A DNA stretch of 64,000 nucleotides from Patescibacteria group bacterium (GTDB lineage: Bacteria > Patescibacteriota > Patescibacteriia > UBA10025 > JAHIVO01). The notes below the pieces were generated by a model, which ran no database searches, had not been told where the DNA came from, and worked only from the letters and a program-made list of their open reading frames with translations. Positions 7,862 through 63,028 of the stretch are shown piece after piece. Positions within the stretch are counted from its first letter, which is position 1; each line of letters opens with the position of its first letter. Both the position numbers and the translations under genes were made by a program. Location: NCBI GenBank assembly GCA_041660605.1, contig JBAZWB010000001.1:9295-73294 (forward strand). Direction: 5' to 3'.

Positions 7862-7978
7862 ACTCCAGCAGATGAACATTGCGTTCACTACTGGAGTTTT
7901 TTATTTTGCAATAGTTGCAATTATTATAAATCAAAAAACGCCTCTACATAGTAGAAACGTCTTTTGTTAATTCCGGCA

Positions 7979-8093
7979 ATTGCCTACTTTCCCCACGGAT
8001 TGCCCCGTAGTATCATCGGCGTAACCAGGCTTAACTTCTGAGTTCGGGATGGGATCAGGTGTGACCCTGGCACTTAAATCACCAGAGGCCAGG
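7979..8093 (-). rRNA. rrf: 5S rRNA
   Basis: Reverse complement reads ...CACACCTGATCCCATCCCGAACTCAGAAGTTAAGCC...GCCGATGATACTACGGGG...TGGGGAAAGTAGGCAA, which matches 5S consensus blocks. Confidence 0.85.
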
Positions 8094-8261: not shown

Positions 8262-11412
<3,151 letters not shown>

Positions 11413-11796
11413 AACACTGAACTTTTCGTTTAGTTATTTTAGTTCGAAAGATGCTTACGTTACCTTATATTACTACTAAATTGTTAAGGTTCCTTGCCAA
11501 CAACTGAGATTCCGACCAGCTATACATTATATATAGCGTTCCGATATTTCAGTTTTGGCAAATTAAGTACTGGTGACCCCGCTACTCCACTTCACTGCGT
11601 TCAGTCTCAGACCCTTCGATTCGCCTACGGCTCACTCAGGGTTGTTACCCTCGCTACGCTCGGGTAACAAAAATCCCGCGGGTGCGGGATAAAATCGGCA
11701 CTAAGATAAATTACGATTTTACCCGCTTTTTGTAGTTAATATTAAGTTTATTTGCATATATATTTGCTTGTGGATTAACTGTTAATTTCAGTGTAG

Positions 11797-11832
11797 TTCA
11801 GTATAACCTTATTGCCGGCGGGTGTCAAGTTA
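11797..11832 (-). promoter_or_regulatory. sigma70-like promoter for the 23S-5S operon (TTGACA-N17-TATACT on the minus strand)
   Basis: Minus strand reads GGTAACTTGACACCCGCCGGCAATAAGGTTATACTGAACT about 390 nt upstream of the mature 23S 5' end. Confidence 0.45.
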
Positions 11833-12308
11833 CCATTTTATAGGCATTTTTACGTAATTTTCATTAAATTTATTAACACATATAGAATTACTAATTATTA
11901 TATGAACAAATTGACAAATTATTTTATCGGCGTTACTTTTTAATCAGATTGTAGGCGTTACATATTGTGATGTTCATTTCAGGAGGTATTTATGCCATTG
12001 AATACGCACTTAGGCCAAAGCACAAATGAATTGGTTATTATCGGAGCGCTGATGTGCCATGGAGATCCCCGCGTGGCTATACACGTTTTAGCTGTGACTG
12101 GAGATCCGGAGTTAGCAGTAAATACTGCCATAGACGCTAATCTCGTCTTTGATTCAATGTCCGACATAGCAGGCGATGACGATTGCGACTGAAGGTTCAC
12201 GAAGATTTTTTTGGCAAAATCAAACCTGGCGATTTAATTTGTCAGGTTTTTTATTAAATTAAATAATAAAACACCCCCGACCGGAATCCGGTCAGGGGCA
12301 TAGTTGAA

Positions 12309-13595
12309 TCAAAGGGCGTTGCTGCCAATATCAGGGCGGTAGTAGGCGCCGTCAAAGCTGATGAGCGCAGCAGCTCGGAGGGCCCGCGATAAGGCCTCCT
12401 GTAATGTTCGGCCAATGGCAGTGACGATGAGTACGCGGCCGCCGTTGGTAATGAGCTGTTGTTCATTGTTATATGCAGTGCCGGCCTGCATGACAACCAC
12501 GCTTTCAATCGCTTCGGCTGCTTCGATGCCCGTGATCAGTTTGTCCTTTTCATACGTGCCAGGGTAACCATCGGAGGCGATGACCACGCCGGCGACATAC
12601 TGATCGGAAAATTGAATATCCAATTCGCCGAGCGTTCCATTGACGCAGGCCAGGACAATATCCAGGAACGGCGTGATGAGCAAGCGCGCTATGGCCTGCA
12701 TTTCCGGATCACCGAACCGGGCATTGACTTCGAGTACCATCAGCCCCTCTTCGGTCTGCATGAAGCCAACGTAGAAACAGCCGCCAAACTGACGTCCTTC
12801 CGCTTTCATCGCGAGCAGTAACTGCTGGACAATAGTATTCACATCGTCCATCAAGGGATCAGTCCAGGCAAGAGGTCCGCATACGCCCAGGCCGCCAGTC
12901 ATGGTGCCGGTATCGCCTTCGCCGCTGTATTTGTAGTCCTGGACAATAGGCAAGACGGTGAAGTTGTCATCACTGACGATAACCATGGCGGAGAATTCCT
13001 TTCCTTCTAGGAATTTTTCGATGACCACCTGGTTGCCGGCATTGCCAAAGGAGCGATCGACCATAATGATCTTCAGGGCAGCCTCAGCTTCGGCCAGGGT
13101 TCGACAGACGAGCGCACCCTTTCCCAGCGCCGGACCGCTGACTTTGATAACGCAGGGGTAGTCGACGGTATGAACATAGTCAAGAGCTGTTTGGTAATCA
13201 TCGAAAACGCGGAACGGCGCAGTGGGAATGTCGTGTTTTTCCATCAACCCTTTGGCAAAGGCTTTTGACAGTTCGATCTCAGCTGCGACGGCTGGCGGGC
13301 CGAACGCCTTGATGCCAGCGGCCTGGAATTTGTCGATGATGCCGAGGCCCAGCGGATCTTCCGGGCCGACGATAACGAGGTCGATGTTTTGCCTCTGAGC
13401 CAAGTCGAGCAGGGCATCGACTTCATGCGCCTTAATCTTAATATTGACGCATTTCGGCAGTCTGAGAGTGCCGGCATTGCCCGGGGCAATGAAAATGGTG
13501 TCAATATCTTCCAATGATTGCGTGATCAGAAGCCACACAATGGCAAATTCTCTGCCGCCGCTGCCAACAACCAGGATTCTTTTTCCTGTCCGCAT
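12309..13595 (-). CDS. purD: Phosphoribosylamine--glycine ligase
   Basis: N-terminus MRTGKRILVVGSGGREFAIVW and an ATP-grasp architecture; full-length 428 aa. Confidence 0.88.
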   Translation of the reverse strand: MRTGKRILVVGSGGREFAIVWLLITQSLEDIDTIFIAPGNAGTLRLPKCVNIKIKAHEVDALLDLAQRQNIDLVIVGPEDPLGLGIIDKFQAAGIKAFGPPAVAAEIELSKAFAKGLMEKHDIPTAPFRVFDDYQTALDYVHTVDYPCVIKVSGPALGKGALVCRTLAEAEAALKIIMVDRSFGNAGNQVVIEKFLEGKEFSAMVIVSDDNFTVLPIVQDYKYSGEGDTGTMTGGLGVCGPLAWTDPLMDDVNTIVQQLLLAMKAEGRQFGGCFYVGFMQTEEGLMVLEVNARFGDPEMQAIARLLITPFLDIVLACVNGTLGELDIQFSDQYVAGVVIASDGYPGTYEKDKLITGIEAAEAIESVVVMQAGTAYNNEQQLITNGGRVLIVTAIGRTLQEALSRALRAAALISFDGAYYRPDIGSNAL

Positions 13596-47966: not shown

Positions 47967-48102
47967 CCCCGTTAGAAAATTAGCCAATGGCCGTTTGATA
48001 ATAAACAATAATTTTATTTGAACCTTCTTTAATAACCAAAAAGATGTTTTATAATTTTCTAACGGGGTTGACAAAAAGAGGAAACCGTAGTAGGTTGTAG
48101 TG
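47967..48102 (+). repeat. Palindromic element copy 4 (terminal repeats CCCCGTTAGAAAATT / AATTTTCTAACGGGG, about 107 nt) with outward TTGACA-N17-TAGGTT
   Basis: Terminal repeats at 47967-47981 and 48053-48067; TTGACA 48068-48073; interior is the reverse complement of the copy-3 interior (for example ...CCTTCTTTAATAACCAAA.AGATGTTTTATAATT). Confidence 0.55.
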
Positions 48103-48129
48103 TTTAAAAGTGGTAAAATATATTTAACT

Positions 48130-51024
48130 ATGTCAAGGGAAACTTTTCATCCTAATTATGCCGATGCAGTTAAAGATGAATCAAATGATTCTAATTCTTT
48201 TGATAAAAAAAAGAATGTACATGGCAGTAAGTTGCAGGAAATTTTAAAATATTTTGACAGAACATTGGTACCGGGTCTGGATTTGAACGCAGTGTATCCA
48301 GAGTACGTAGGAAAAGAAGCTGATGTACAGGGTATAGATCAAGAGAAAGAGAAGGCGCTACTGGATCATTTAAATACTCAATATAAAGCCCTGACGGGGG
48401 GTCATGAAGTCCTCACAGAGATGAGCGAAGTTGAGCAACAGAAAGTTGGAGGATTAATAGAGGAGGTTGTTGAACAATATTGGAAGCCCACCATATCAAT
48501 GCACACGAAAGAGGCATTAGCAGATTTTATAGATAATCTCATTGTTCAACTCAATCAGGAAGGGGTTGAGCAGGTTTTGGAAAAAAGCTTAGATTTAAAC
48601 GAGAAAGGGAATATTAATAAAGTGGGTCATTGGATTAAACTTTTAGAAGAGCTTTATTGGCGTTCTGAGCGAATTGATCCGGAATCGAGAGAAGAGTACT
48701 TTCGGGATTTTGAATCTGAAGATGCCGTCGTGAAAAAGATAGTTGGAGAATTGATGGAAAAAATTAAGAACGAATCCGAGGGAAACTATTTTTTGAATGA
48801 ACGCATTAAATATCTCGTCGAGTGTATTAAAAAGGGAGAAGTCCCTGAAGTCGACACCTTACCGTTTGATTTTGATTTTGGGCACTATGCTAAATGGCAA
48901 GAAAATGGGAGACTCGCGGTGACACCAATGGGTGACGATGGTGATATTGAGGATGATATTGAAATGTATACAAAACTTGAGAATACTTTTTTAGAGGAAA
49001 TGGGTGCAACTCACAGCGATAAAGAAAAGAGCGCACTTCAAAAAGAAATGCAGGAAACACTCAGTGCGGTTGCCAATAAAATCCGTACTTCATATTACTT
49101 TGAGGAGTTGAAGCCATATCAACTCCGTTCTTTTACTGATCAGGTTGGGGACGATAAAGATAAATCATCTGATCAATCGCTATATGATTTTGAATACCTG
49201 CATTCACGTCAGATGAGGAAACAAATTGAAAAAGATTTTGGGATAGTGGTTGAGTATATTAATTTGCCAGTCCGGAATAAATTTTTTCAATTTATTAAAG
49301 AGAAAAATATTAAAGATATCGAACCAGCAAAGAATTTTTCCAAAAAATATGGGGAAGCAGGGCTGGTAACATTTTTATCTTTGGCACAGGATCCGACAAT
49401 AGGCAACAAACTGGTAGAACTTGGTAATCGCCTGCCTGAAGATGATGCTTATCGATTATTTGATCAGTATCATAGACTCATCACAAGCGCTAGCAGCAAA
49501 GCAGAAAAAATCCAAACGCTTCTTGCGCAGCAATACCCAGAAATAAATTTATCCAGGGAAGAACTTTCTGATTGTTTCATGGTACGCGCAAAGGATTTAT
49601 TAAATGAAAGCTTCAATAAAATGGAGGATGGAAAGCTAGATATTGATCAGGTTCTTGCAGAACTTAATCAGGAAACGGCAATACAAGAAGTTTTACGTGT
49701 TCAGTTCATGAAGATTGCCGAGCTTCTATCGAAAGATGATGTTGACTTGGAGACATATAACCATACGCAAGAAATGGTTATAAAAAGTATCGGAGAGTCA
49801 GGTCTAGTGAGCGAGGCGGCATATTTGCGTGCTTTAAACGCCATGGGCAAACTAAAACCCATGCCGGAATTATACTGGAAAGTTGACCGGGAGCCGGAAG
49901 AGTACAATAAACGTTTGGGTGTTAATGTACCGGAGGTACTGAAAAGAGTAGGCCAAGGTGGCAACGAAAAGACCTTATTGGAATTCGGTCCGGGTAGCGG
50001 TCTGGCCAAGCACAAACTGCGGTTATCCGGTGCGGCTGATAATTTTACGGAATTTGCCATGAGCGACGCGCTTTATTACGATTTAGCTGAACCAATAAAA
50101 CATTTAATTGATTTTGATAAAATCCAGGCCAAACTGGGCAAAGAATTAAATGCACAGGACAAGCAATCATTAATTGAGTATATAAAACGGACTATCGTCA
50201 TAAAAGTCGGCCAGACAGCTGTTGATAAGATTGAGTATGATCAGGAGTTTCAAAGTGATATTGCTCATAGTCCCAATGCCCTGAAAGAGTATATAAAAAA
50301 ATCCGGACATAAAGTTTCTCTTGCCGACACGGTGCCGACTGATCAAGCCGTAGAAACTCCGGATGGCCCAATATATGCTGAAAAATTTGAAGTAGCAAAA
50401 CAATCTCCAGCTTGGCAGGAAGCACGACGGCTTTTCATGGGTGAAGTGGAAAAATATTTGCGGGACGATTTTGATGAGCAGGATGTTTATGAAATATTGA
50501 ATGCCCATCCAGCCGGAATCATGATCGGGGACTTTAATGACGTTACAAAACTGAAAAATGACCAATTGGATTTTGCCCTGGGCGTCAGGTCGACGGTCTA
50601 TGTGGAGCGCGAGCAATATCCTGAATTTATTAAAAACGTGATAGCAAAATTAAAAGATGGAGGAATCTACATTGACGATAATGTGAGGGAAAATTTCGGC
50701 CGGTACTATCGCTTAGCAGAACTGAAGCAGGTGCAGGAGGACTTAGTTGAGCTGAAACGAAAAGGTGGGATAGATTTTGATGTCACTATTTCTCTGGTTA
50801 TCGGGCGTGGCGTGGCAGAAGAAGATTATAAAAAGGACGATGCGCCTATCGCCGTCGTTATTGCTAAGGGTAAAGCTGATCTATCAGTCGTTTCTGAAAA
50901 TTTATTGAAGTCCAGCAAGTTAGTCGGTTTGGACGAAGTGGTTGCTAATGGCGATTATCTGAAAAGCCTGGATCAGTCTGGTCGGGTTAAAAAATCAATT
51001 AATACATTACCACGAGCCGCTTAG
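48130..51024 (+). CDS. Large hypothetical protein (964-974 aa; track start is the GTG at 48100)
   Basis: Long low-GC ORF; possible SAM-binding motif I-like stretch KTLLEFGPGSGLAKHKL; otherwise no motif recognised. Confidence 0.55.
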   Translation: MSRETFHPNYADAVKDESNDSNSFDKKKNVHGSKLQEILKYFDRTLVPGLDLNAVYPEYVGKEADVQGIDQEKEKALLDHLNTQYKALTGGHEVLTEMSEVEQQKVGGLIEEVVEQYWKPTISMHTKEALADFIDNLIVQLNQEGVEQVLEKSLDLNEKGNINKVGHWIKLLEELYWRSERIDPESREEYFRDFESEDAVVKKIVGELMEKIKNESEGNYFLNERIKYLVECIKKGEVPEVDTLPFDFDFGHYAKWQENGRLAVTPMGDDGDIEDDIEMYTKLENTFLEEMGATHSDKEKSALQKEMQETLSAVANKIRTSYYFEELKPYQLRSFTDQVGDDKDKSSDQSLYDFEYLHSRQMRKQIEKDFGIVVEYINLPVRNKFFQFIKEKNIKDIEPAKNFSKKYGEAGLVTFLSLAQDPTIGNKLVELGNRLPEDDAYRLFDQYHRLITSASSKAEKIQTLLAQQYPEINLSREELSDCFMVRAKDLLNESFNKMEDGKLDIDQVLAELNQETAIQEVLRVQFMKIAELLSKDDVDLETYNHTQEMVIKSIGESGLVSEAAYLRALNAMGKLKPMPELYWKVDREPEEYNKRLGVNVPEVLKRVGQGGNEKTLLEFGPGSGLAKHKLRLSGAADNFTEFAMSDALYYDLAEPIKHLIDFDKIQAKLGKELNAQDKQSLIEYIKRTIVIKVGQTAVDKIEYDQEFQSDIAHSPNALKEYIKKSGHKVSLADTVPTDQAVETPDGPIYAEKFEVAKQSPAWQEARRLFMGEVEKYLRDDFDEQDVYEILNAHPAGIMIGDFNDVTKLKNDQLDFALGVRSTVYVEREQYPEFIKNVIAKLKDGGIYIDDNVRENFGRYYRLAELKQVQEDLVELKRKGGIDFDVTISLVIGRGVAEEDYKKDDAPIAVVIAKGKADLSVVSENLLKSSKLVGLDEVVANGDYLKSLDQSGRVKKSINTLPRAA

Positions 51025-51788
51025 GAGCCAGATGGTAAGGTTGACCAGAGGAAGTTAAATAGAATTTTAAAGTTGTTGGCAATCTCTTCATTGTCGATCA
51101 GTACGCCAACGGCGTTTTTCTTTTGGAAAGTTATCAGTGAAATTTTGTGCCCGCTGATTTTAATATCCATCCGGAAAGGGAACTTATTGACGGGGATTAA
51201 TCTTGCCTCAATAAATTTATCAGAGTTAGTTTTATTTAATGCATTGGTATCCGGCGAGATAACACGATTGAACAATTTTTTTTGCACGCGAGTTTTTATG
51301 TATATTGGCGCGTAATCTGGAATATATTCTAGAAGGTCGCCCTTTTCCTCTATGCTGTCAATTGGTTGGTTATTTGACAGAAGTTCCTCGTAGATTTTTA
51401 TTATACCCTCTTGGCCCTCGAAGAAACGAACTCCGGGCTTGTTCATCGTTAATCGGTAGGTTGAGGCAAGTTGCTCAAAATTACTTTGCAGCACTTTTTT
51501 TTGCTGGTTAAGTTGGTGCTCATTTTTTTCTACTAAAGCTTTCAGCTGTTCCGGCGGCTCTACGGTAAATACTTTCTTCCCACGCTCTTCAGTTTCCAAA
51601 ACTAGGCCTTTCTTAATGAGGTCGCCAAGGATGTCGTAGGTATTGCCCCGTTTATAGGGGACTTTGGGCAGGAGCTTGCCCATATTAGCTTTGCCCAATA
51701 ACAATAAGGCCTCATAAACGGTGGCCTCTTTTTCTGAAAGGCCAATTTGGTTGAGAGTTTTAGCAATGGGGGAGGTAGGAGGGGGCAT
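51021..51788 (-). CDS. TrmB-family HTH transcriptional regulator (paralogue 1)
   Basis: N-terminus IGLSEKEATVYEALLLLGKANMGKL...GLV winged helix of the TrmB type; its C-terminus resembles that of the 56377-57135 protein. Confidence 0.55.
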   Translation of the reverse strand: MPPPTSPIAKTLNQIGLSEKEATVYEALLLLGKANMGKLLPKVPYKRGNTYDILGDLIKKGLVLETEERGKKVFTVEPPEQLKALVEKNEHQLNQQKKVLQSNFEQLASTYRLTMNKPGVRFFEGQEGIIKIYEELLSNNQPIDSIEEKGDLLEYIPDYAPIYIKTRVQKKLFNRVISPDTNALNKTNSDKFIEARLIPVNKFPFRMDIKISGHKISLITFQKKNAVGVLIDNEEIANNFKILFNFLWSTLPSGS

Positions 51789-51988
51789 ATTATTTGAGGT
51801 TAATCCCTGTGGATAAGTCTGTCCACAAGAGTTTTTTAGTTAACTTAGAAAGTCTGCTTACGGGTTAATTCTAGCAAACTAATTAATTAATGTCAATATT
51901 CAATGACATTTTAGGTTAATAATATTTAATAAATTAATCCCTTTATCACAAGCGAGTATCACTTTTTAAATTCTATTGGCATTTACCG

Positions 51989-52017
51989 TTGACAAAAATA
52001 CTAAGTGGGTATATACT
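51989..52017 (+). promoter_or_regulatory. Near-consensus sigma70 promoter TTGACA-N17-TATACT with no ORF downstream
   Basis: TTGACA 51989-51994, TATACT 52012-52017. Confidence 0.5.
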
Positions 52018-52024
52018 GATTCGT

Positions 52025-52520
52025 TACGCTAAAAATTCGTTCTTTCGGAAGAAGCTCTTTTTCAAAAGCACTGAAGCCAAATGACTATGAAGCGTCATCA
52101 AACATTGGTGGCAATTCAAGCCGGCTTATCAGTCGAAAGTAGATCAGCTGTTTAATCAAGGGTTGATGCAAGTAATAGGAGAGAGACAGCCCTTGGCAAA
52201 GCAACCATTTATTTTCTGGCGATACTCGTCAGTGGCGCTCCCGGCGCTCGCAAACACCGCGAGACCAGGAGAACAGTGTTGAGTATCAAATGAGTGATGA
52301 GGAGGGAACTTTGACAATTGAATAAATGATATGCGCCGCCTTTCATAAGCATCGGGGCGGGCACCGGAGAGAGCACCTTCGCTTCATATTTATATGCGGC
52401 ATGGTGAAAGCGGCAGTGAAAACTGCTGAAGAGCTTAGAAAACTTTTAGAATTCATTAACATGAATATATACCAATAAAAGGGACTCTCTCATTAAATGA
52501 GCATGAGTCCCTTTTAGTTT
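52025..52520 (+). ncRNA. Candidate noncoding RNA of about 490 nt, family unidentified
   Basis: Strong promoter, no ORF above 50 codons, many local hairpins, ends at a bidirectional terminator (GGGACTCTCTCATTAAATGAGCATGAGTCCC then TTTT). Confidence 0.3.
52481..52520. terminator. Bidirectional rho-independent terminator
   Basis: Hairpin flanked by A-run and T-run on both strands. Confidence 0.5.
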
Positions 52521-52893
52521 GGTTTGGGCAAAGAGAGGAGAGAGAAGCAGTGAAGGCCTAATAGCAATATACAATATTCGAGGCCACATATCTGTCTCTT
52601 CTCTTTGCTCTTTTAGAAAGTAATTGTTCTTTTCCTCCTACGCGTAAACGCTATGGAGGACACAGTCAGTGTTTGAAGTTTTCCATTTGGAATTATTGGA
52701 TCGGCATAAACGACTTGCGCTTGTTGCAAGCGTCATGCGGGTCAACGAAGGAGAGAGGATAATGGAAAATTTTTAGCCAGACGGTTAGCCCGTTGTCGGG
52801 AATCCAAGATTTCCGGTTCGCGCAACAAGTTCGCGGATCGGGAGGACGGCAAACGAGACACAGACGCTAGCCCCAAGTGCGCCCCCACACCTT

Positions 52894-53166
52894 TTAGTCT
52901 TCGTGAATTGAGTGTTGGATACGTCGTTTCAATTGGCCCCACGCCTTCGCATGTTTCTTGAGCTGGCGTTCACGTTCGTACGCATCTTTTCTGGAAGCGT
53001 ACGCTTCATAGTAGATAATTTTCCACGGCCGAAACGAACGGGTATAGGTACTTTCGCCATTATTGTGCTGTATTAATCTTTGTTGCGGCTGTTTGGTGAA
53101 GCCAATGTACTTTTTACCCGGATATTTAACACTCTTTAATATGTACATAAAGTAATACATATACAT
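52894..53166 (-). CDS. Small GIY-YIG nuclease-domain protein (UPF0213/COG2827-like); alternative start at 53148
   Basis: YILKSVKYPGKKYIGFTKQPQQRLIQHNNGES...WKIIYYEAY...ERERQLKKH matches the GIY..YIG..R..H.N..E pattern. Confidence 0.7.
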   Translation of the reverse strand: MYMYYFMYILKSVKYPGKKYIGFTKQPQQRLIQHNNGESTYTRSFRPWKIIYYEAYASRKDAYERERQLKKHAKAWGQLKRRIQHSIHED

Positions 53167-53244
53167 ATTATATCATGGTAACTAAAAGGTGTGGGGTGCA
53201 GTTGGGAATAAACTCAACTGAAAAATCAAAAACAAAGTCCCGTC

Positions 53245-54660
53245 GTGGAAACACAGATGGGCGAGGAGAGGAAAATGTTTGTACGAGTTAGAATGTCCAG
53301 CGTCGCAGAGCCAGGAAAGCTCTGGACCGGCGATACGCCAGAGGATGGTGCTGTCGCTGAAGTTGAACTTGTCGAGTTGCACTGCGAATGCGGTGCGTCA
53401 ACCCGAAAGTTCAGAATTTCCAACGAGCTACCCGTGCAGCTTGTTGGCGAGGCAATTGATGTGAGTCAGTTGCCGATTGCCTACATCTCTTGCGGAGGTG
53501 TGGGATCGACCCGTGACTCCGTAGAGGCATTGGAGGCATGGAATTGGTCGGGTCGCGTCGGTGGCTCGGTCATAATTGATCCACTCGTTGTTCTCGAGGG
53601 ATATGTTTCTTGTCCTCCGCCTACGAAGAATGGATTCAAGTGGATATGCTTGTATAGTGGATCCACTTTGAACGGATTCGTCCTTGTCCGTTTGGATAAG
53701 AGTGGAAATCTCCACCCGGATCACTGTCCCCTCGTCCGTACGGTAGATCAGGCACGGGAATGCCCGCCTTGTAGGGAGAAACGCATTTCCGCGGCCTTGA
53801 ATGGTGTCGAGGAGATGTTCATCATTGAAACCGACGTCGAGTATCTTAAGGTCGGCGAAGGTGAAGAGCTCCCTGCTCACGCCGTTCGGGCATGGGCAGC
53901 TGCACCCACGTTGGAGGGGGCAAAGAAGGGAAAGATTTCTTTCCTCTATGAAGGTGGGGCAGGTGGCCGTCGTGGGCCGCAAGCCACCGGTCATCTTCAG
54001 GACTTATGTTGCCTGAGGGTGAAGATCAAAAATGGAAGAGTTTCACATCTTCTCTGGGTTATGAAATCCGGGGAGATGATAGAGGACACTCATTATGAGT
54101 TCATTGGTGAGTGCCAGATCGCTGGTATCAACCTTAAGGTTGGCCAGTGGTTTCCGGACTACCTAATACCAAAGGAGGCCGAAACTCCTTTGGTAGAATC
54201 GGACCCAGTACCCCTTTTCTTAAATGAGGAGCTAATTTCGCTCGCCAATAGAGCGAAAGACGTTTCTGGTGAGAGTGACTACGCTCTTGCTAACTCAATT
54301 TTTGCCTACCTTTTGGAAAAGTTTTTCCAGGAAGGCGAGAATTCAGGTCTCGAATTAGAGCTCGAAACACAGGACCTAGAAGGTCGTGGTCCGAGTGAGG
54401 TCTTCTATGACCTTCTGGTCGCCAGAGCGGGTGAGAGCACGCTCTGTATTCCGGTACCTTTGCTGGAAAGCAAGAGCGCCTTGACTGCAGCAAAAGCTGC
54501 AGCGAAGGTGTTTCGTCGGGAGCACGAGCGTGATTCTAGATCGGATCCGACCGAGATGAAAATTCTCTGGCAGGAAGTACTTGAAAAGGTGGGAAGAGAG
54601 GCTCTTGAGGCTTCCTTCTACCACCTGGTAGATAAGGTAGAAATACCTTTTCTCGAGTAG
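53245..54660 (+). CDS. Hypothetical protein A (471 aa), GC-rich, with Cys clusters (CECG...CPLV...CPPC)
   Basis: Coordinates taken from the track; GTG start; conserved leader AAACAAAGTCCCG.CG...GGGCGAGGAGAG; followed by the hairpin GGAGGTGACGTTTGCACAAACGCCACCTCC. Confidence 0.5.
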   Translation: METQMGEERKMFVRVRMSSVAEPGKLWTGDTPEDGAVAEVELVELHCECGASTRKFRISNELPVQLVGEAIDVSQLPIAYISCGGVGSTRDSVEALEAWNWSGRVGGSVIIDPLVVLEGYVSCPPPTKNGFKWICLYSGSTLNGFVLVRLDKSGNLHPDHCPLVRTVDQARECPPCREKRISAALNGVEEMFIIETDVEYLKVGEGEELPAHAVRAWAAAPTLEGAKKGKISFLYEGGAGGRRGPQATGHLQDLCCLRVKIKNGRVSHLLWVMKSGEMIEDTHYEFIGECQIAGINLKVGQWFPDYLIPKEAETPLVESDPVPLFLNEELISLANRAKDVSGESDYALANSIFAYLLEKFFQEGENSGLELELETQDLEGRGPSEVFYDLLVARAGESTLCIPVPLLESKSALTAAKAAAKVFRREHERDSRSDPTEMKILWQEVLEKVGREALEASFYHLVDKVEIPFLE

Positions 54661-54842
54661 TTCTTTTTGAAATCAACGCATTGCACATGTGCTTGGTTTC
54701 AGCAATCGGAGGTGACGTTTGCACAAACGCCACCTCCCTCTTTTCCAGTTCGTGAGTACACATTCTCGGACTGAAAAAGAAACCAAAACAGAAACAAAAA
54801 ACAAAGTCCCGACGGTTTTCACCGTACGGGCGAGGAGAGAGT

Positions 54843-55829
54843 ATGAGAACGAGTAGTAGAGGAAATGAGTCACAGCTAATCGAGGGCGCGAGAGTCATGG
54901 CGCCCTTTGATGAATCTATCTTCTCAGACATCATTTCAGCCGTTAAGGGTTGCCGGAGCTGGGAGTTACTGGCAACCGAAGGAATGTGGGGACGCAAAGG
55001 GTTTCTAGTCCTCGCCGGGCCTAGCAACGGCGTACAACTGTACGTAGAATGCGATCATATCCGACGGCCTGGGAGAACGACGGAGATGGTGTGGATTTGG
55101 GGTTGGGCACCAAACCCATTTTCACGGTTGGTAATGGTTGAACCCAATTGCCAGTCTGAAGCGGATTTGCTATCCATCCTTCGATGGGTCGCTAACCGTG
55201 CCGGGATCAGCACGGGGAAACTAATTGGAATTCGGGAAATTCCTGGGTTCCAGTCTGAGGAGAGTTTTCCTTTCCCCTGGCCCAGCGTCGGTGAGAAAGT
55301 GAACCACCAAGACGGCTGGTTCACTCGTTCCAAGATTGTATATCGGGTTGAAAAACCCGAATGGTTTGAAGGGGATGCTTTCCGTATCGCGGAAGGTATT
55401 TACATCACCTTCCCAGACGGTTCCTACCGCTTGGTCCAATCGGCTAAGGAGTTTTTCTCCTGGCCGGGGTGGTCGCTTGGTCCATCGATCCCGACGGATA
55501 TACCCGGCGTTATCTCGGGATATGGGGGGCCAACTCACCGGCAGGGCGACCTGATGGTGTGGCCGGCTCCCGGTGATCTAGGTGAGTGGGAAGGAGAATT
55601 GAGTTTCCGGGGCTTAACCCTGGATACTAGTCACTTTCTTTTGGTAGACGAAAGTCTGCCGGAGGGGAAGGGGTCGCTCGACCGTCATACGGTCGAAAGA
55701 AACGATGATGGTTCGGTGGTGATTACTCACCCCGAACACGCTACCGTGGAACTTCCGGCAGGGAAGTATATTATTGGGCTCTTGCCCGGTACTTCCCGGC
55801 CATTTAGCCGAGACAGGGATCTCGACTAA
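54843..55829 (+). CDS. Hypothetical protein B (328 aa), GC-rich, Trp/Gly/Pro-rich
   Basis: Same conserved 5' leader and the same 3' hairpin as gene A. Confidence 0.5.
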   Translation: MRTSSRGNESQLIEGARVMAPFDESIFSDIISAVKGCRSWELLATEGMWGRKGFLVLAGPSNGVQLYVECDHIRRPGRTTEMVWIWGWAPNPFSRLVMVEPNCQSEADLLSILRWVANRAGISTGKLIGIREIPGFQSEESFPFPWPSVGEKVNHQDGWFTRSKIVYRVEKPEWFEGDAFRIAEGIYITFPDGSYRLVQSAKEFFSWPGWSLGPSIPTDIPGVISGYGGPTHRQGDLMVWPAPGDLGEWEGELSFRGLTLDTSHFLLVDESLPEGKGSLDRHTVERNDDGSVVITHPEHATVELPAGKYIIGLLPGTSRPFSRDRDLD

Positions 55830-56167
55830 TATTGCACTAATGGAGGTGACGTTTGCACAAACGCCACCTCCTTCATTTCCAGCCTATCACCCTACGCTAA
55901 AGCTTCGGGTGGTTGTCTGAAAAAGAAATTTTGTCTCCCCGCACCGGATCAGGCGCTGCGTTTGTTCATTACATTACGAATAAGCGCGGCCTCCTCTCTC
56001 CAGCCTGGTCCGATGCGGGGAGGGAATTATTAAATAATAGCGGTTAGATGTCACAAACCGCGCCGTCGGAGATAGATTTTTTCCGCTGGTTTTTTATGTT
56101 ATAATGATTTTAGCGAATCTCTGTCTATGTACGGAGTTTCGTTAATTCATCTTTCATAGGAGGATAT

Positions 56168-56269
56168 ATGGAAGATTTACACGTACGTCCGCACCTTTAC
56201 GTTCGCCCACGTCCGCCATCTGTAGATATGATGAACGGTAATGTGAAGCTGAACGACGACGAGAACTGA
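56168..56269 (+). CDS. 33-aa Pro/Arg-rich peptide MEDLHVRPHLYVRPRPPSVDMMNGNVKLNDDEN (not in track)
   Basis: AGGAGGATAT RBS directly upstream, extended -10 TGTTATAAT at about 56128, own terminator GGAGTGCCAACCGGCACTCCTTTTTT. Confidence 0.4.
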   Translation: MEDLHVRPHLYVRPRPPSVDMMNGNVKLNDDEN

Positions 56270-56295
56270 GAACCACCCTGTTCTAACTTTCTCGT

Positions 56296-56322
56296 CAGAA
56301 TTTCTGGAGTGCCAACCGGCAC
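56296..56322 (+). terminator. Rho-independent terminator of the peptide gene
   Basis: GGAGTGCC-AACC-GGCACTCC followed by TTTTTT. Confidence 0.6.
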
Positions 56323-56376
56323 TCCTTTTTTAATATAAAAACAGCCATTTATTCATTTAATAATGAGTGTGACTTT

Positions 56377-57135
56377 CTATTCTTCAGGCAGGCTATTCCA
56401 AAGCGTCATAAAAATAAAACACAGTATCTGCGCCATTGCGGGATCCTCAATGAGTACTACCTTCAAGCTTTCCCCTTCTATGGACGCGATAGCAATGTTG
56501 TCCCCAAAAAGCTGGATACCCGCTGGAATGTTAATATTTTCTTTAAGGAAACGAAATTTTCGGTAGTTGCCTAATGTTTCGCTAAATCGCTTATGCGCAA
56601 GAATTCTACGATCGGTAATAGCGTACGCTGTTGTTGATTGTTTTATGCGTTTCAAAGTTAAACGGCGGTATACCTCTTCCGCTTTCATAATTGGGAAGAA
56701 TGTATCAAGCGACCCGAACCAGTAATTGTCTTTATTTTCTTTGATTAGCTTATCAATGATTGCACGAGCGCCCGCTTTTCCCTCATAGTACGTAACTTGT
56801 GTAGAGGGGGTTTTGTGCTTGATCGCCTGGGTGAGTGCAGGAATGAGCTTTTCAATTACATTTTTGTCCTGCACAATCTTTTCTTCTTCTTGGTTGAGAA
56901 ATTCTCGGAATGCTTCAGTCGGCGGTGTGGCGGTGATTAACTGTCGTTTACCTTTGATAATACGGGAAATCAATCCTCTTTTTTGCAACTTTTCAAGATA
57001 AAAATAAACCGTACTGCGCCTGATGCCCGTAAGGCGAGCCAAATTCGCCGGATTATTGGGCTCGTGCTGCAAACAGGCGAGGTAAATAGCTATTTCCTTC
57101 TCCTCTAAACCTAGCTTTTTTAGAAGTTTTTCCAT
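56377..57135 (-). CDS. TrmB-family HTH transcriptional regulator (paralogue 2)
   Basis: LGLEEKEIAIYLACLQHEPNNPANLARLTGIRRSTVYFYLEKLQKRGLI; C-terminus ILCFIFMTLWNSLPE parallels ILFNFLWSTLP of paralogue 1. Confidence 0.55.
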   Translation of the reverse strand: MEKLLKKLGLEEKEIAIYLACLQHEPNNPANLARLTGIRRSTVYFYLEKLQKRGLISRIIKGKRQLITATPPTEAFREFLNQEEEKIVQDKNVIEKLIPALTQAIKHKTPSTQVTYYEGKAGARAIIDKLIKENKDNYWFGSLDTFFPIMKAEEVYRRLTLKRIKQSTTAYAITDRRILAHKRFSETLGNYRKFRFLKENINIPAGIQLFGDNIAIASIEGESLKVVLIEDPAMAQILCFIFMTLWNSLPEE

Positions 57136-57366: not shown

Positions 57367-57927
57367 GTGAGACATGCATCTGTTACCAGATCAAAAAGCA
57401 TGACCGTCAACGGTAGCGACCCCCGGTGGAGAACCATCAACGGAGATAGTTACCACTTCGTAAATGAAAGGCTTGATATTAAGGACTTTCCAATTTCTAA
57501 TCCCGTGAAGCGTGAAGTTGAGTATGAAGAAATCACATTCGACCGCTCAGTAACTACACAAGAAATCTTAGATACGATTAGGTCTCAAGATTTGTGGCAT
57601 CCCGAAAGGGATGAGGCCGAGACGTACTTCGATGCTCTTTCAAACTCCAAAAGGCAATTAGACGAGTCTCCCATCGTTGCTTTGTGTGGTACCTTTATTG
57701 GTGGGAATCATAGGTATGATCGTGGCGTCTCTTGCATTATTGCCAACAAGGATGGACGTAGCCTGAGCCTCTTTTATACTGGTAAGGCATGGGTCCAGAA
57801 GTGCCGTTTCCTTGTTGTTCATAAACGTACAGGCGTTAATAATGATATATATGACTCTCCCGAGGACGTCATACTCCAATGCTATATGCTGCCAGCGATC
57901 AAAGCGACCCTAGATTTAATTCGATAA
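57367..57927 (+). CDS. Hypothetical protein (186 aa)
   Basis: GTG start with AAGGAG 5 nt upstream; no motif recognised. Confidence 0.4.
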   Translation: MRHASVTRSKSMTVNGSDPRWRTINGDSYHFVNERLDIKDFPISNPVKREVEYEEITFDRSVTTQEILDTIRSQDLWHPERDEAETYFDALSNSKRQLDESPIVALCGTFIGGNHRYDRGVSCIIANKDGRSLSLFYTGKAWVQKCRFLVVHKRTGVNNDIYDSPEDVILQCYMLPAIKATLDLIR

Positions 57928-58064: not shown

Positions 58065-58646
58065 ATGATCAGTCATTTAACGGGAAAAATCATTGCCAAG
58101 ACAGCCCGTTCTGTCGTACTTGATGTGAATTCAGTGGGCTACGAGGTAGCTGTCCTACCGATTTTATTGGAAAAAGCGAATAAGGGCGAAGAACTGTCTT
58201 TGTTCACTTATCTTTGCGTACGCGAAGATGCCATGGATTTATACGGCTTCAAAACCACGGAAGAAAAAAATTTCTTCCACGATTTGATCGGCGTTACCGG
58301 TATCGGGCCAAAATCCGCCATGACCGTTATGTCGCTGACTTCTTTGCGCGACCTGAAAAAAGCCATTGCCCACGGCGACGCCTCGTTGCTAACCAAGGTT
58401 TCCGGCATTGGCAAGAAAACTGCTGAACGCATTATATTGGAATTAAAAAACAAAGTAGAGATAAGTTTGGGCCAAGGCGAAGAGCTGGGAATGAGCAGCG
58501 CTGACAGCCAGGCCATAGACGGGCTGATCAGCCTGGGCTATACCGCCCGGGAAGCCCGGGAAGCGCTTCAGCAAGTGGATAAGAAAATCACGGAAGCCAA
58601 AGACCGGATAAAGGCTGCCCTGAAATTGCTTGGGAAGAATAAATAG
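58065..58646 (+). CDS. ruvA: Holliday junction branch-migration complex subunit RuvA
   Basis: MISHLTGKII...VLDVNSVGYEV N-terminus, HhH motifs (GIGPKSAM, VSGIGKKTAERI), C-terminal domain III. Confidence 0.85.
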   Translation: MISHLTGKIIAKTARSVVLDVNSVGYEVAVLPILLEKANKGEELSLFTYLCVREDAMDLYGFKTTEEKNFFHDLIGVTGIGPKSAMTVMSLTSLRDLKKAIAHGDASLLTKVSGIGKKTAERIILELKNKVEISLGQGEELGMSSADSQAIDGLISLGYTAREAREALQQVDKKITEAKDRIKAALKLLGKNK

Positions 58647-60693: not shown

Positions 60694-60765
60694 GCCCTTA
60701 TCGTTCAATGGATAGGACGCAAGATTCCGGATCTTGTAATGCAGGTTCGAATCCTGCTGAGGGCA
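60694..60765 (+). tRNA. tRNA-Arg (anticodon CCG)
   Basis: GCCCTTA/TGAGGGC acceptor (one G-U pair), D-arm GTTC-AATGGATA-GGAC, anticodon stem CAAGA/TCTTG with loop TTCCGGA, T-arm CAGGTTCGAATCCTG. The antisense ORF 60499-60810 is spurious. Confidence 0.75.
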
Positions 60766-61804: not shown

Positions 61805-62040
61805 AAACCTTATCAAGAGAGAGCTGAGGGTTCTGGCCCAACGACGCTCCGACAACCATCCTACGCTTTTCATTGCATTCAAAGCTTTGGATGGCGTAGC
61901 CCTAGTAATGAGGCTACGCCACGAGTTAATTAAGTGAAAGAGCAGCAGGAACGGTGCCAAGTCCAGCCTAGCCATTTACGGATGGCCGGGATAGATAAGA
62001 GATAAAACAATCTCTTAGATAATAAGAGATTTTTTGTTAC
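61805..62040 (+). ncRNA. SAM-I (S-box) riboswitch with an enlarged P3/P4 region and a terminator expression platform
   Basis: CTTATCAAGAGAGAGCTGAGGGTTCTGGCCCAACGACGCTCCGACAACC matches CUUAUCAAGAG.GG.GGAGGGA.UGGCCC..GAA.CC.GCAACC; GGTGCCAAGTCCAGC matches GGUGCUAAAUCCAGC; P1 3' strand GATAAGAG; terminator ATCTCTTA-GATAA-TAAGAGAT + TTTTTT at 62011-62036. Confidence 0.75.
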
Positions 62041-62065: not shown

Positions 62066-63028
62066 ATGGGCCAATCATTTTCTGAAAAAGTTAAGGATCC
62101 TTCGTATTATCCGGTATTATACGAAATGTTGCCTCCACCGGGAAACGGCAACCATTCGGCCTCGCAGGCTTTTCTGAAAGTCCTGGACAAGATTTTTCAT
62201 AATGTGCGGATTGATGCCATTAATATTCCGGAGATTCATGAGGAAAAAGGCCAGTCTGGCCAAAAAGAAGTTCAGACTTTTGACAAAGCCGTTCCGCGCC
62301 AGTTTGCCCGAGAGATATTAAAACACCGGAAAGATTTTGAAGTCATCATCAACCACGTAGTTGTGCACCAGCCGCCGGAGATATTTCATCAATGGGCAGC
62401 GGAAACATATGATGAATTTGGCCTGAAAAATTTAATTTTGGTAGGCGGCGAATCGCCGAAAATCAAATACCCCGGTCCGACTGTTACTGAGGCTGCAGAA
62501 TATCTGCGCGACAAATACGTTTCCGGGGTGAAAGATAATAAATGCGCGTTGCTTGGCGGCATTACCATCCCGACCAGGCGGCACGCGCAGGTTGAACAGG
62601 ATGAGCCGGCCCGTTTGGTGAAGAAAAGCCAGAGCGGCATAGAATTTTTTACCAGCCAGGTAATCTACGAGGCAGAAACGACGAAAAGCCTCTTGAGCGC
62701 CTATAACACCTATTGCCATAAAGCCGGCGTAAAACCAAAAAGGATTTTTATCAGCTTCGCGCCGGTTTCTACGCCAAAAGACATTAAATTTCTCCGCTGG
62801 CTGGGAGTCAGCATTCCCGAAGAGGTTGAGCAGCATCTGCTGGAAGGCTGGGTCGGCATGGGTTGGCGTTCGGTGGAATTATGCCAGGAAATATTGTCGG
62901 ATATTTTAAATCATATCAGAAAATTCAAGCTGAAAGTGCCGATCGGCATAAATGTCGAGCATATCATGAAGTATAATGTGGAATTGTCCAAGGAGCTGCT
63001 GGTAAATTTATCCGAGACTTTGAAATAA
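62066..63028 (+). CDS. Methylenetetrahydrofolate reductase-like protein (MetF family)
   Basis: Co-linear similarity to MetF (VLYEMLPP, VGGESP, QVIYEAET...FISFAPVSTPKDIKFLRWLGVSIPEEV); downstream of a SAM riboswitch. Confidence 0.6.
   Translation: MGQSFSEKVKDPSYYPVLYEMLPPPGNGNHSASQAFLKVLDKIFHNVRIDAINIPEIHEEKGQSGQKEVQTFDKAVPRQFAREILKHRKDFEVIINHVVVHQPPEIFHQWAAETYDEFGLKNLILVGGESPKIKYPGPTVTEAAEYLRDKYVSGVKDNKCALLGGITIPTRRHAQVEQDEPARLVKKSQSGIEFFTSQVIYEAETTKSLLSAYNTYCHKAGVKPKRIFISFAPVSTPKDIKFLRWLGVSIPEEVEQHLLEGWVGMGWRSVELCQEILSDILNHIRKFKLKVPIGINVEHIMKYNVELSKELLVNLSETLK

Follow-up and report, generated by a model that had tools for sequence, protein, structure and literature searches.

The DNA analysed here (the window) is a stretch of 64,000 nucleotides (nt) from a Patescibacteria group bacterium (assembly GCA_041660605.1, contig JBAZWB010000001.1, positions 9,295 to 73,294 of the forward strand). 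One locus in it runs from UvrB, a 706-amino-acid (aa) open reading frame (ORF), through a gene for a 974-aa protein and the regulator TrmB1 to a strong sigma-70 promoter, a noncoding stretch at 51.99–53.21 kb, a set of cargo cassettes and RuvA (Table 1). The noncoding stretch is one conserved structured RNA locus of about 1.2 kb with two modules, RNA1 and RNA2. The initial annotation had read this part of the window as an island bracketed by two TrmB-family regulators, with a promoted noncoding region, a GIY-YIG nuclease, two unknown genes (A and B) and a short peptide gene, an architecture often seen in accessory, defence or mobile modules. The ORFs, promoter, terminator and contrast in GC content that it listed are all present, and the noncoding region is real, promoter-driven and conserved. 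Its observation is confirmed, and part of its interpretation is supported. What stands out is not the island but the RNA, a large and new structured RNA locus of the Candidate Phyla Radiation (CPR).

Related loci are referred to below by number (L001 and so on). Synteny was anchored on TrmB1, for which ten Patescibacteria genomes gave orthologs of 45–71% identity. The order UvrB, 974-aa gene, TrmB1 and long ORF-free stretch is conserved in these loci, TrmB1 adjoins the noncoding stretch in every one of the ten genomes, and RuvA lies 6–8 kb further on in L006, L008 and L014, as it does in the window. The locus is a conserved type in the Patescibacteria (CPR), with TrmB1 and the noncoding stretch as its core, and a variable block follows at about 53.2–58.06 kb. 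A, B, GIY-YIG, TrmB2 and p186 had no tblastn match in the TrmB1-syntenic loci. The relatives have other genes in the variable position, mostly unknown; those identified encode a GH77 glucanotransferase, a PKD-domain protein and a SpaA-like protein. In the window the variable cargo comprises A, B, the 33-aa ORF, TrmB2 and p186. The comparison with relatives thus bears out a variable block, but the segment bounded by the two TrmB genes is not a unit.

Table 1. Positions of the features of the locus in the window.
Feature	Position	Strand	Description
974-aa protein	48100–51024	+	conserved; convergent with TrmB1, the two ends overlapping by 4 nt
TrmB1	51021–51788	−	core winged-helix regulator, divergent from the RNA promoter; Pfam TrmB 4.5e-11
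Palindrome TGTCAATATTCAATGACA (TGTCAA-N6-TGACA)	51891–51908		candidate TrmB1 operator
RNA promoter TTGACA-N17-TATACT	51989–52017	+	11 of 12 consensus positions; transcript start near GTTACG, about 52023
RNA1	52023–52517	+	first structured module, ends at an intrinsic terminator
RNA2, 5' part	52517–52898	+	hairpin, motifs, long-range helix, 5' strand of the terminal helix
Left arm of inverted repeat, CCCCACACCTTTTAGT	52883–52898		16 nt, perfect complement of 53181–53196
GIY-YIG gene	52894–53166	−	90 aa, catalytic domain only; PF01541 6.4e-15, residues 5–75
Right repeat arm (53181–53196) and 3' strand of the RNA2 terminal helix	53181–53212	+	
Spacer and leader of A	53213–53274	+	A-rich spacer, small hairpin (GUCCCG...GGGC), Shine-Dalgarno leader GGGCGAGGAGAGG
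Gene A	53275–54660	+	fusion of two families: A-N (about residues 1–175) and A-C (last ~145 residues)
3' cassette hairpin after A (GGAGGUGACGUUUGCACAAACGCCACCUCC and tail)	54708–54748	+	copy of a 41-nt direct repeat
Gene B	54843–55829	+	orphan cargo protein, 328 aa
3' cassette hairpin after B	55842–55882	+	second copy of the 41-nt repeat
33-aa Pro/Arg-rich ORF	56168–56269	+	putative gene; AGGAGG ribosome-binding site, extended -10 TGTTATAAT, terminator 56306–56325
TrmB2	56377–57135	−	variable cargo regulator; Pfam TrmB 2.3e-13
p186	57367–57927	+	orphan ORF, last in the variable block and followed by RuvA
RuvA	58065–58646		directly after p186

Neither the hexamers of the RNA promoter nor the GTTA start varies among the relatives, and both are the same in the distant loci L097, L015, L064 and L074. 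The 23S rRNA promoter of the window uses identical hexamers, so the RNA has an rRNA-grade promoter. RNA1 has a conserved 3' core (52296–52522) and an optional 5'-proximal domain (about 52035–52303), which L006 and L009 lack. The hairpin of the RNA1 terminator (about 52477–52516) has a stem of 52481–52487 paired with 52506–52512 and is followed by UUUU. RNA2 starts with a second terminator-like long hairpin (52526–52611), followed by UCUUUU. Downstream of this hairpin are the motif TTGTTCTTT at 52624–52632 and a long-range helix (about 52669–52684 with 52762–52777), which encloses GGAGAGAGG; the string UCGGGAAUCCA is invariant within RNA2. The module closes with a terminal helix of about 22 bp. 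Its 5' strand is 52871–52898 and its 3' strand is UGCAGUUGGGAA, which lies after the right arm of an inverted repeat around the GIY-YIG gene. In L006, L008, L009 and L014 the terminal helix is contiguous and reads CCCAAGUGCGC-stem-loop-stem-UGCAGUUGGG. The segment 52520–52893, which had been listed as separate noncoding DNA, is the second module of the same conserved RNA. Similarly, the 80 nt between GIY-YIG and A, described as a divergent promoter region, are not merely a promoter and hold the 3' strand of a conserved RNA helix.

Conservation and base pairing both support an RNA. DNA identity over 51974–52885 is 71–83% with L006, L008, L009 and L014, which equals that of the flanking coding genes. 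Promoter, motifs and terminator are invariant in the six-genome alignment, and both hairpins with their terminator-like U-runs are conserved in the relatives, where they lie between the promoter and the genes. The predicted folds are more stable than those of shuffled sequences (z = -3.6 for RNA1 and -3.7 for RNA2). RNAalifold gave 33 pairs for the RNA1 core (alignment A3) and 74 pairs for RNA2 (alignment A9), with compensatory changes in 13/33 and 31/74, respectively. Standard pairs occupy 93.4% (A3) and 91.9% (A9) of the cells, compared with 31–48% and 43–52% when the partners were slid, and none of 500 shuffles reached the observed covariation score for either module. Helix 7 of A9 is 97% paired, and the relatives all have TTGCAGTTGGGAA unchanged in the 3' strand of the terminal helix. 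Invariant G-U pairs on the plus strand fix which strand is transcribed. No ORF longer than 66 aa is present in 51989–52893. A period of three bases is not seen in the substitutions, and of 92 gap runs only 19 have a length divisible by three. The lack of codon periodicity and the frame-shifting indels indicate that the region is noncoding, and for the same reasons small ORFs missed in the RNA region were ruled out.

The RNA does not correspond to a catalogued family. With Rfam 15, 51700–53300 gave no match at gathering thresholds and only chance-level microRNA and small RNA matches at E <= 10, and the equivalent regions of eight related loci were likewise without a match. The Rfam scan called for by the initial annotation thus returned no family, yet the region is conserved and supported by covariation. 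RNase P RNA, tmRNA, SRP RNA, 6S RNA, riboswitches, the large ornate RNAs and introns were considered and rejected, since neither Rfam nor ARAGORN gave a match. The string CCGGCTTATC resembles the 3' end of RNase P RNA and is not conserved in relatives. A hidden 16S rRNA fragment was also considered. The repeat stem at the GIY-YIG gene resembles helix 6 of the 16S rRNA in L104, but the flanks differ, and the Rfam small-subunit rRNA model had no match in the window. Literature searches found no description of a CPR RNA of this kind.

Two covariance models show where the RNA occurs. The model of the RNA1 core (R1) gave strong matches only in seven loci (the window, L006–L009, L014 and L018), and the model of the RNA2 3' module (R2) matched six (the window, L006, L008, L009, L014 and L001). 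A looser signature, consisting of the operator palindrome, the promoter, the GTTA start, 590–1230 nt free of ORFs and two to four GAGAGAG motifs, is shared by L015 (Buchananbacteria) and the distant L097, and L064 and L074 have part of it. The stretch with this signature in L097 leads into an A-N gene. R1 had no match to L002, L096 or L097, and the similarity in DNA between the leaders of the window and L002 was not above that of shuffled sequences.

The motif TTGTTCTTT(ATA) occurs about 15 nt after the transcript start in every relative (52036–52047 in the window) and recurs as one to four tandem copies after the second hairpin, also in every relative; the loci concerned are L006, L007, L009, L014, L018, L001 (61–76) and L096 (about 9978). 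A boxA reading of this motif was rejected because it is missing from the leader of the organism's own 23S rRNA (11380–12330), where a TTGACA-N17-TATACT promoter is accompanied by the E. coli-like boxA CCTTAACAATTTA instead. Another noncoding block is shared by L002 (5490–5640) and L096 (9130–9250). It reads AATGTTATTCCTCTTCG..CTA...TAGCGTAAAAAACTTAA..GGTGGG.TAAGAGGG and is unrelated in sequence to the RNA of the window.

The GIY-YIG gene is antisense to the host RNA and lies in the apical loop of the RNA2 terminal helix. The 16-nt inverted repeat brackets it exactly (chance expectation about 0.01), the insertion measures 282 nt (52899–53180), and an extended -10 element (TGATATAAT) stands just upstream of its ATG. 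The hairpin is uninterrupted and the gene absent in L006, L008, L009 and L014. Only seven relatives of the protein were found at E <= 1e-8. The three closest homologs with readable context (63–66% identity) are all inside structured RNA genes: L104 is a 289-nt insertion in the helix-6 hairpin of 16S rRNA, L105 lies in the P3 hairpin of RNase P RNA, just 5' of GAGGAAAGUCC, and L106 is in 16S rRNA at a site different from that of L104. The repeat core CCCACACCTTTT (other arm AAAAGGTGTGGG) flanks all four copies. Because one stem recurs at four host sites, the repeat belongs to the element. The homologs in 16S rRNA and RNase P RNA with the same stem indicate that the gene is not a component of a system with its neighbours, as had been assumed. 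The GIY-YIG gene together with its own inverted-repeat stem is a selfish element, similar to an intervening sequence (IVS), of the apical loops of structured RNA genes. Its stem would simply extend the host helix. No group I or group II intron model of Rfam matched at the insertion.

Two side observations concern such insertions. L014 has ORF-less RNA2 hairpins with the stem of the element, CCCCACAC.../...GGTGTGGGG, at about 8790–8830 and 8740–8775 (minus strand), and these may be remnants after loss of the ORF. The 16S rRNA gene of L106 also holds a LAGLIDADG_2 ORF further downstream (1177–1944), so that two types of insertion are present in the same gene.

A 2024 survey of insertions in CPR rRNA reports GIY-YIG ORFs in insertions of neither the group I nor the group II intron type, and describes the insertions that bear them as sparse and situated mainly at the top or the base of a stem-loop (PMC11270868). 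The element in the window is similar to these IVS-like insertions: a small GIY-YIG ORF sits atop a stem-loop of a structured RNA gene, no group I or group II intron is involved, and the insertion is sporadic among relatives (PMC11270868). The closest homologs of the protein are indeed insertions of this kind in 16S rRNA (L104 and L106). The window differs in that the host is an unannotated RNA and not rRNA and the ORF is antisense, and a further homolog is in the P3 hairpin of RNase P RNA (L105). The inverted-repeat stem shared by all four copies is not mentioned in the part of the survey consulted (PMC11270868). Insertions in rRNA are thus of an already known kind, and the case in RNase P RNA, the non-rRNA host and the shared stem extend the picture.

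Downstream of RNA2, the cargo genes share boundaries on both sides. The 5' boundary consists of an A-rich spacer, a small hairpin and GGGCGAGGAG (GGGCG[AT]GGAG), followed by ATG. The leader that precedes A is found again before B (54792–54842; repeat D4) and before cargo in L001, L008, L009 and L014, and the 5' signal occurs twice each in the window, L001 and L009 and once each in L008 and L014. The 3' boundary is marked by a hairpin that has UUGCACAA at its apex and whose stem covaries. Such hairpins follow A, B, the B homolog in L001 (1390–1409) and a cargo gene in L009 (6738–6759), and the two 41-nt copies behind A and B are 95% identical (chance expectation 0). The view of A and B as cassette-like therefore gains support from shared 5' leaders and 3' hairpins. 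A 20-nt inverted repeat (55935–56022), 90% complementary and with arms 48 nt apart, lies just beyond the hairpin of the last cassette, where GC-rich cargo gives way to AT-rich DNA.

Neither A nor B has a recognisable domain, as the initial annotation stated; Pfam, NCBIfam, PADLOC and PHROGs gave no match to either. The start of A, first listed as 471 aa, is corrected to what is most likely the true one, the ATG at 53275 (MFVRV...), because the N-termini of the family read M-I/L-V-K-I...PGKLWTG. Among 1.84e9 representatives A had 152 matches, divided between its two domains, with about 50 for A-N and about 100 for A-C, mostly stand-alone proteins of 140–220 aa. A-N and A-C are encoded by adjacent genes in L002. 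Sequence and profile searches with A in the Protein Data Bank (PDB) were also empty. The AlphaFold model of A-N is confident, with a predicted local distance difference test (pLDDT) score of 87, and above 90 for residues 1–175, and had no fold match, BFVD included. A-N and A-C are new families. In four attempts MAFFT aligned the second half of A-N onto A-C (TY.GSTLSEFVL with Y.LAN.IFA.LL; CPPCR with LCIPVPLL), which may reflect a distant internal duplication or an artefact.

A-N genes also lie downstream of a divergent TrmB gene, across an ORF-free gap of 660–1000 nt, in L002, L096 and L097/L098, which belong to distant CPR lineages, with a homolog of the 974-aa protein adjacent; these loci were found by way of A and not of TrmB. 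A further locus of the A family, L101 (3.8 kb), has PIN genes upstream and no TrmB gene within 2.5 kb. B had one homolog among 5.8e9 proteins, with 57% identity, and the gene for this homolog stands directly behind an RNA2 3' module in L001 (R2, 55.5 bits, E = 1.6e-12). The single-sequence AlphaFold2 model of B has a pLDDT of 40 and is unusable. The ribosome-binding site, the extended -10 and the terminator proposed for the 33-aa ORF were all seen, and as a gene it is putative; about 100 CPR loci yielded no homolog. It contains HLYVRPRPPS, which presumably resembles the YLPRPRPP core of insect proline-rich antimicrobial peptides (e.g. oncocin) and also ribosome-arrest motifs.

GC content is 0.515 in A and 0.539 in B compared with 0.40–0.42 in the 974-aa gene and TrmB1, and cargo exceeds its conserved neighbours by 10–20 points in the window, L002, L096, L097 and L014. 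This enrichment suggests an exchanged gene pool. The cargo differs among relatives but is drawn from a shared pool, as L009, L014 and L002 share a family of 309–319 aa, L006 and L009 share one of 141 aa, and A-N too recurs in more than one locus. It could be argued that, like tRNA and tmRNA genes, the RNA gene serves as a hot spot for integration and that the cargo is what is left of integrated mobile elements, with no relation to the function of the RNA. The position of variable, GC-shifted cargo right behind the 3' end of a structured RNA gene, seen in several lineages, and the patchy sharing of cargo genes by distant genomes, would be expected in this case. However, no integrase or recombinase was found in the block of the window or the examined blocks of relatives, the 3' end of the RNA is not duplicated in the manner of an attR, and the uniform cargo leader continues the 3' flank of RNA2, which argues for a shared expression signal and not for random integration. 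We therefore regard a hot spot as improbable. Integron cassettes are another comparison. There, too, a common promoter serves a series of promoterless genes of one orientation, an imperfect hairpin follows each gene, and the content varies between relatives. No recombinase domain was found in the genes of the locus or the examined cargo of relatives, and the hairpins with the UUGCACAA apex are, as far as examined and short of a formal attC test, not attC-like. The cassettes of the window differ further in sharing a 5' translation leader.

The two TrmB proteins do not bracket the block. TrmB1 is a core gene beside the RNA, and TrmB2 is just another cargo gene, with no ortholog at the same position in the syntenic relatives and with closer similarity to TrmB proteins of other CPR lineages. 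They had been taken for paralogues with a distinctive C-terminus, but they are only 23.5% identical, and the ILFNFLWSTLP-type C-terminal motif is family-wide (consensus NFKILFExxW, alignment A2). Both carry the N-terminal winged-helix domain PF01978. The C-terminus matched no Pfam domain, so that no TrmB_C sugar-binding domain was detected, the scores with the NCBIfam TrmB equivalogs were 17–23 bits compared with cut-offs of 500–650, and sequence search found no relative in the PDB. The left half of the palindrome upstream of TrmB1 is the -35 of its own promoter (minus strand, 51896–51868), which agrees with the consensus at 11 of 12 positions. The palindrome does not vary in the six-genome alignment, and L015 and L097 also have it upstream of the RNA promoter. 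TrmB1 would bind it and is probably autoregulated. This is similar to TrmB and TrmBL1 of Thermococcales and Halobacteria, with which the winged helix and a palindromic operator (a candidate here) near the own promoter are shared. The proteins of the window differ from these in being bacterial (CPR), in their low NCBIfam scores and in the lack of a detected TrmB_C domain.

A self-contained accessory, defence or mobile island, in which the noncoding RNA, GIY-YIG, A and B would cooperate between two TrmB paralogues, could explain why A, B, TrmB2 and p186 are missing from syntenic relatives, why A and B are GC-rich relative to the host and why A and B carry cassette-like repeats. Synteny largely refutes it, since the 974-aa gene, TrmB1 and the RNA belong to the syntenic core. 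The low identity of the two regulators and the independence of the GIY-YIG element, which is also in rRNA and RNase P RNA, are against it as well. PADLOC, PHROGs, Pfam and NCBIfam were negative for A, B, p186 and the 974-aa protein, PADLOC was blank also for GIY-YIG and TrmB1, and it gave only generic helix-turn-helix matches, to regulators of the Csa3/CasR type, for TrmB2, so a defence architecture finds no support. The cargo proteins A and B have no relatives on viral contigs, and no integrase, transposase or direct-repeat boundaries were found. An island of this kind is very improbable. The idea of a block unlike its neighbours holds for A, B, TrmB2 and p186, which are variable, and fails for TrmB1 and the RNA core.

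The RNA is conserved, folded and noncoding, and in every relative it runs on without a physical break to the first cargo gene. This gene begins about 60–100 nt past the RNA2 terminal helix in all of them, with no promoter-like region between. We propose that the RNA is a long cis-acting leader that gates the variable cargo, and put the probability of this at roughly 45%. Transcription from the promoter would meet two terminator-like hairpins (about 52477–52516 and 52526–52617). Read-through would be set by alternative pairing between the invariant GGAGAGAG motifs, of which there are four copies, and the invariant CUCUCUC, and a protein or ligand would probably set the choice. When termination wins, RNA1 would be released as a discrete RNA of 230–490 nt. 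TrmB1 would repress its own promoter through the palindrome overlapping its -35. CUCUCUC lies in the 5' arm of the first terminator and is complementary to GGAGAGAG. When the 3' arm of the terminator was removed, CUCUCUC paired with GGAGAGAG in the folds of L006, L007 and L008 and partly in that of L009.

Leaders that act by attenuation (riboswitches, T-boxes and protein-mediated antitermination) likewise have a promoter, a conserved folded RNA, hairpins with U-runs and then genes, and an invariant upstream sequence complementary to the 5' arm of the terminator. The RNA of the window differs from them in its size of about 1.2 kb and its two modules, far larger than known leaders, in its heterogeneous and variable cargo, and in having no match to a cis-regulatory family of Rfam.

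A plausible, if doubtful, alternative is that RNA1, RNA2 or both are stable, trans-acting large RNAs with a cellular function of their own, a new class that resembles OLE, GOLLD and ROOL in size and ornateness, and that the cargo is incidental, as a mere neighbour or through accidental co-transcription. RNA1 has its own consensus promoter with the 23S rRNA hexamers and its own strong terminator, it has an optional domain as many stable RNAs do, and the whole is a large, multi-helix RNA with covariation. The other hosts of the GIY-YIG element, 16S rRNA twice and RNase P RNA once, suggest that RNA2 is treated alike. On the other hand, RNA2 lacks a 3' terminator of its own and in every relative passes by way of a conserved leader into the first cargo gene, and the same RNA2 module stands before A in the window and before the B homolog in L001. 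The distribution in a narrow clade would be unusual for an essential RNA, and no Rfam family was matched. OLE, GOLLD, ROOL and HEARO are likewise hundreds of nt long with many covarying helices, narrow in range and associated with variable or mobile genes. They differ from the RNA of the window, which has internal terminators, enters coding genes and matches no Rfam model.

Several points weigh against a cis-acting leader. The covariation alignments comprise 5–6 sequences, and the structures were derived from the same alignments in which the pairs were counted. The alignable RNA family is small and confined to one clade, and the link to L097, L096 and L002 lies in promoter, operator and motif content and not in alignable structure. 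The truncated folds of the window and of L014 paired CUCUCUC with another purine run, which in the case of the window is contrary to the proposed switch. Both GGAGAGAG and CUCUCUC are constant in all sequences, so that their pairing is beyond the reach of covariation. We infer the transcript ends, the read-through and the processing from sequence only. Riboswitch-like leaders normally precede functionally coherent genes, and the cargo here is heterogeneous. Finally, the other hosts of the GIY-YIG element are stable RNAs, which fits a stable trans-acting RNA equally well or better.

Orthologs of the 974-aa protein (27–48% identity) are found in the same convergent arrangement with TrmB1 in L006–L015, L002 and L096. 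The protein had no match in Pfam, NCBIfam or the PDB. Its segment LLEFGPGSGL (window 50000–50030) resembles motif I of class I S-adenosylmethionine-dependent methyltransferases, without support from hidden Markov models, and its distant homologs gave faint GNAT matches only. For p186, no family match was found in Pfam, PADLOC, PHROGs or NCBIfam, and no homolog in any fetched locus. Elsewhere in the window, the 23S rRNA gene (8266–11406, minus strand) is 3141 nt long compared with a model of 2925 positions and contains several inserts, e.g. one of 77 nt and others of about 45–90 nt. A 5S rRNA gene (7971–8086, minus strand) adjoins it. No 16S rRNA gene lies within the 64 kb, which indicates that the rRNA genes are unlinked. 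The window also holds two tRNA genes. tRNA-Arg(CCG) is at 60694–60765, and a SAM-I riboswitch (61807–62001, 51.6 bits) lies upstream of an ORF at 62066–63028.

The CPR comprise a large share of bacterial diversity, and to our knowledge almost nothing is known about their regulatory RNAs. An RNA of about 1.2 kb supported by covariation would rank among the largest bacterial noncoding RNAs outside rRNA. The result on the GIY-YIG element adds non-rRNA structured RNA hosts and a conserved inverted-repeat stem to a known class of insertions. Insertions of this type could flag structured RNA genes that have not been annotated, and the mobility of the element and its removal from host RNAs have become directly testable. 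A-N, which has no fold match, and A-C are targets for structural and functional work. It is conceivable, though on balance unlikely, that the locus is an expression platform new in the CPR, in which a two-module RNA and an autoregulated TrmB gate exchangeable cassettes with standard GGGCGAGGAG and UUGCACAA signals, and that the GIY-YIG element colonises the hairpin loops of any structured RNA gene and not only those of rRNA. An RNA fixed ahead of swappable genes provides a handle on how reduced genomes express lineage-specific accessory functions.

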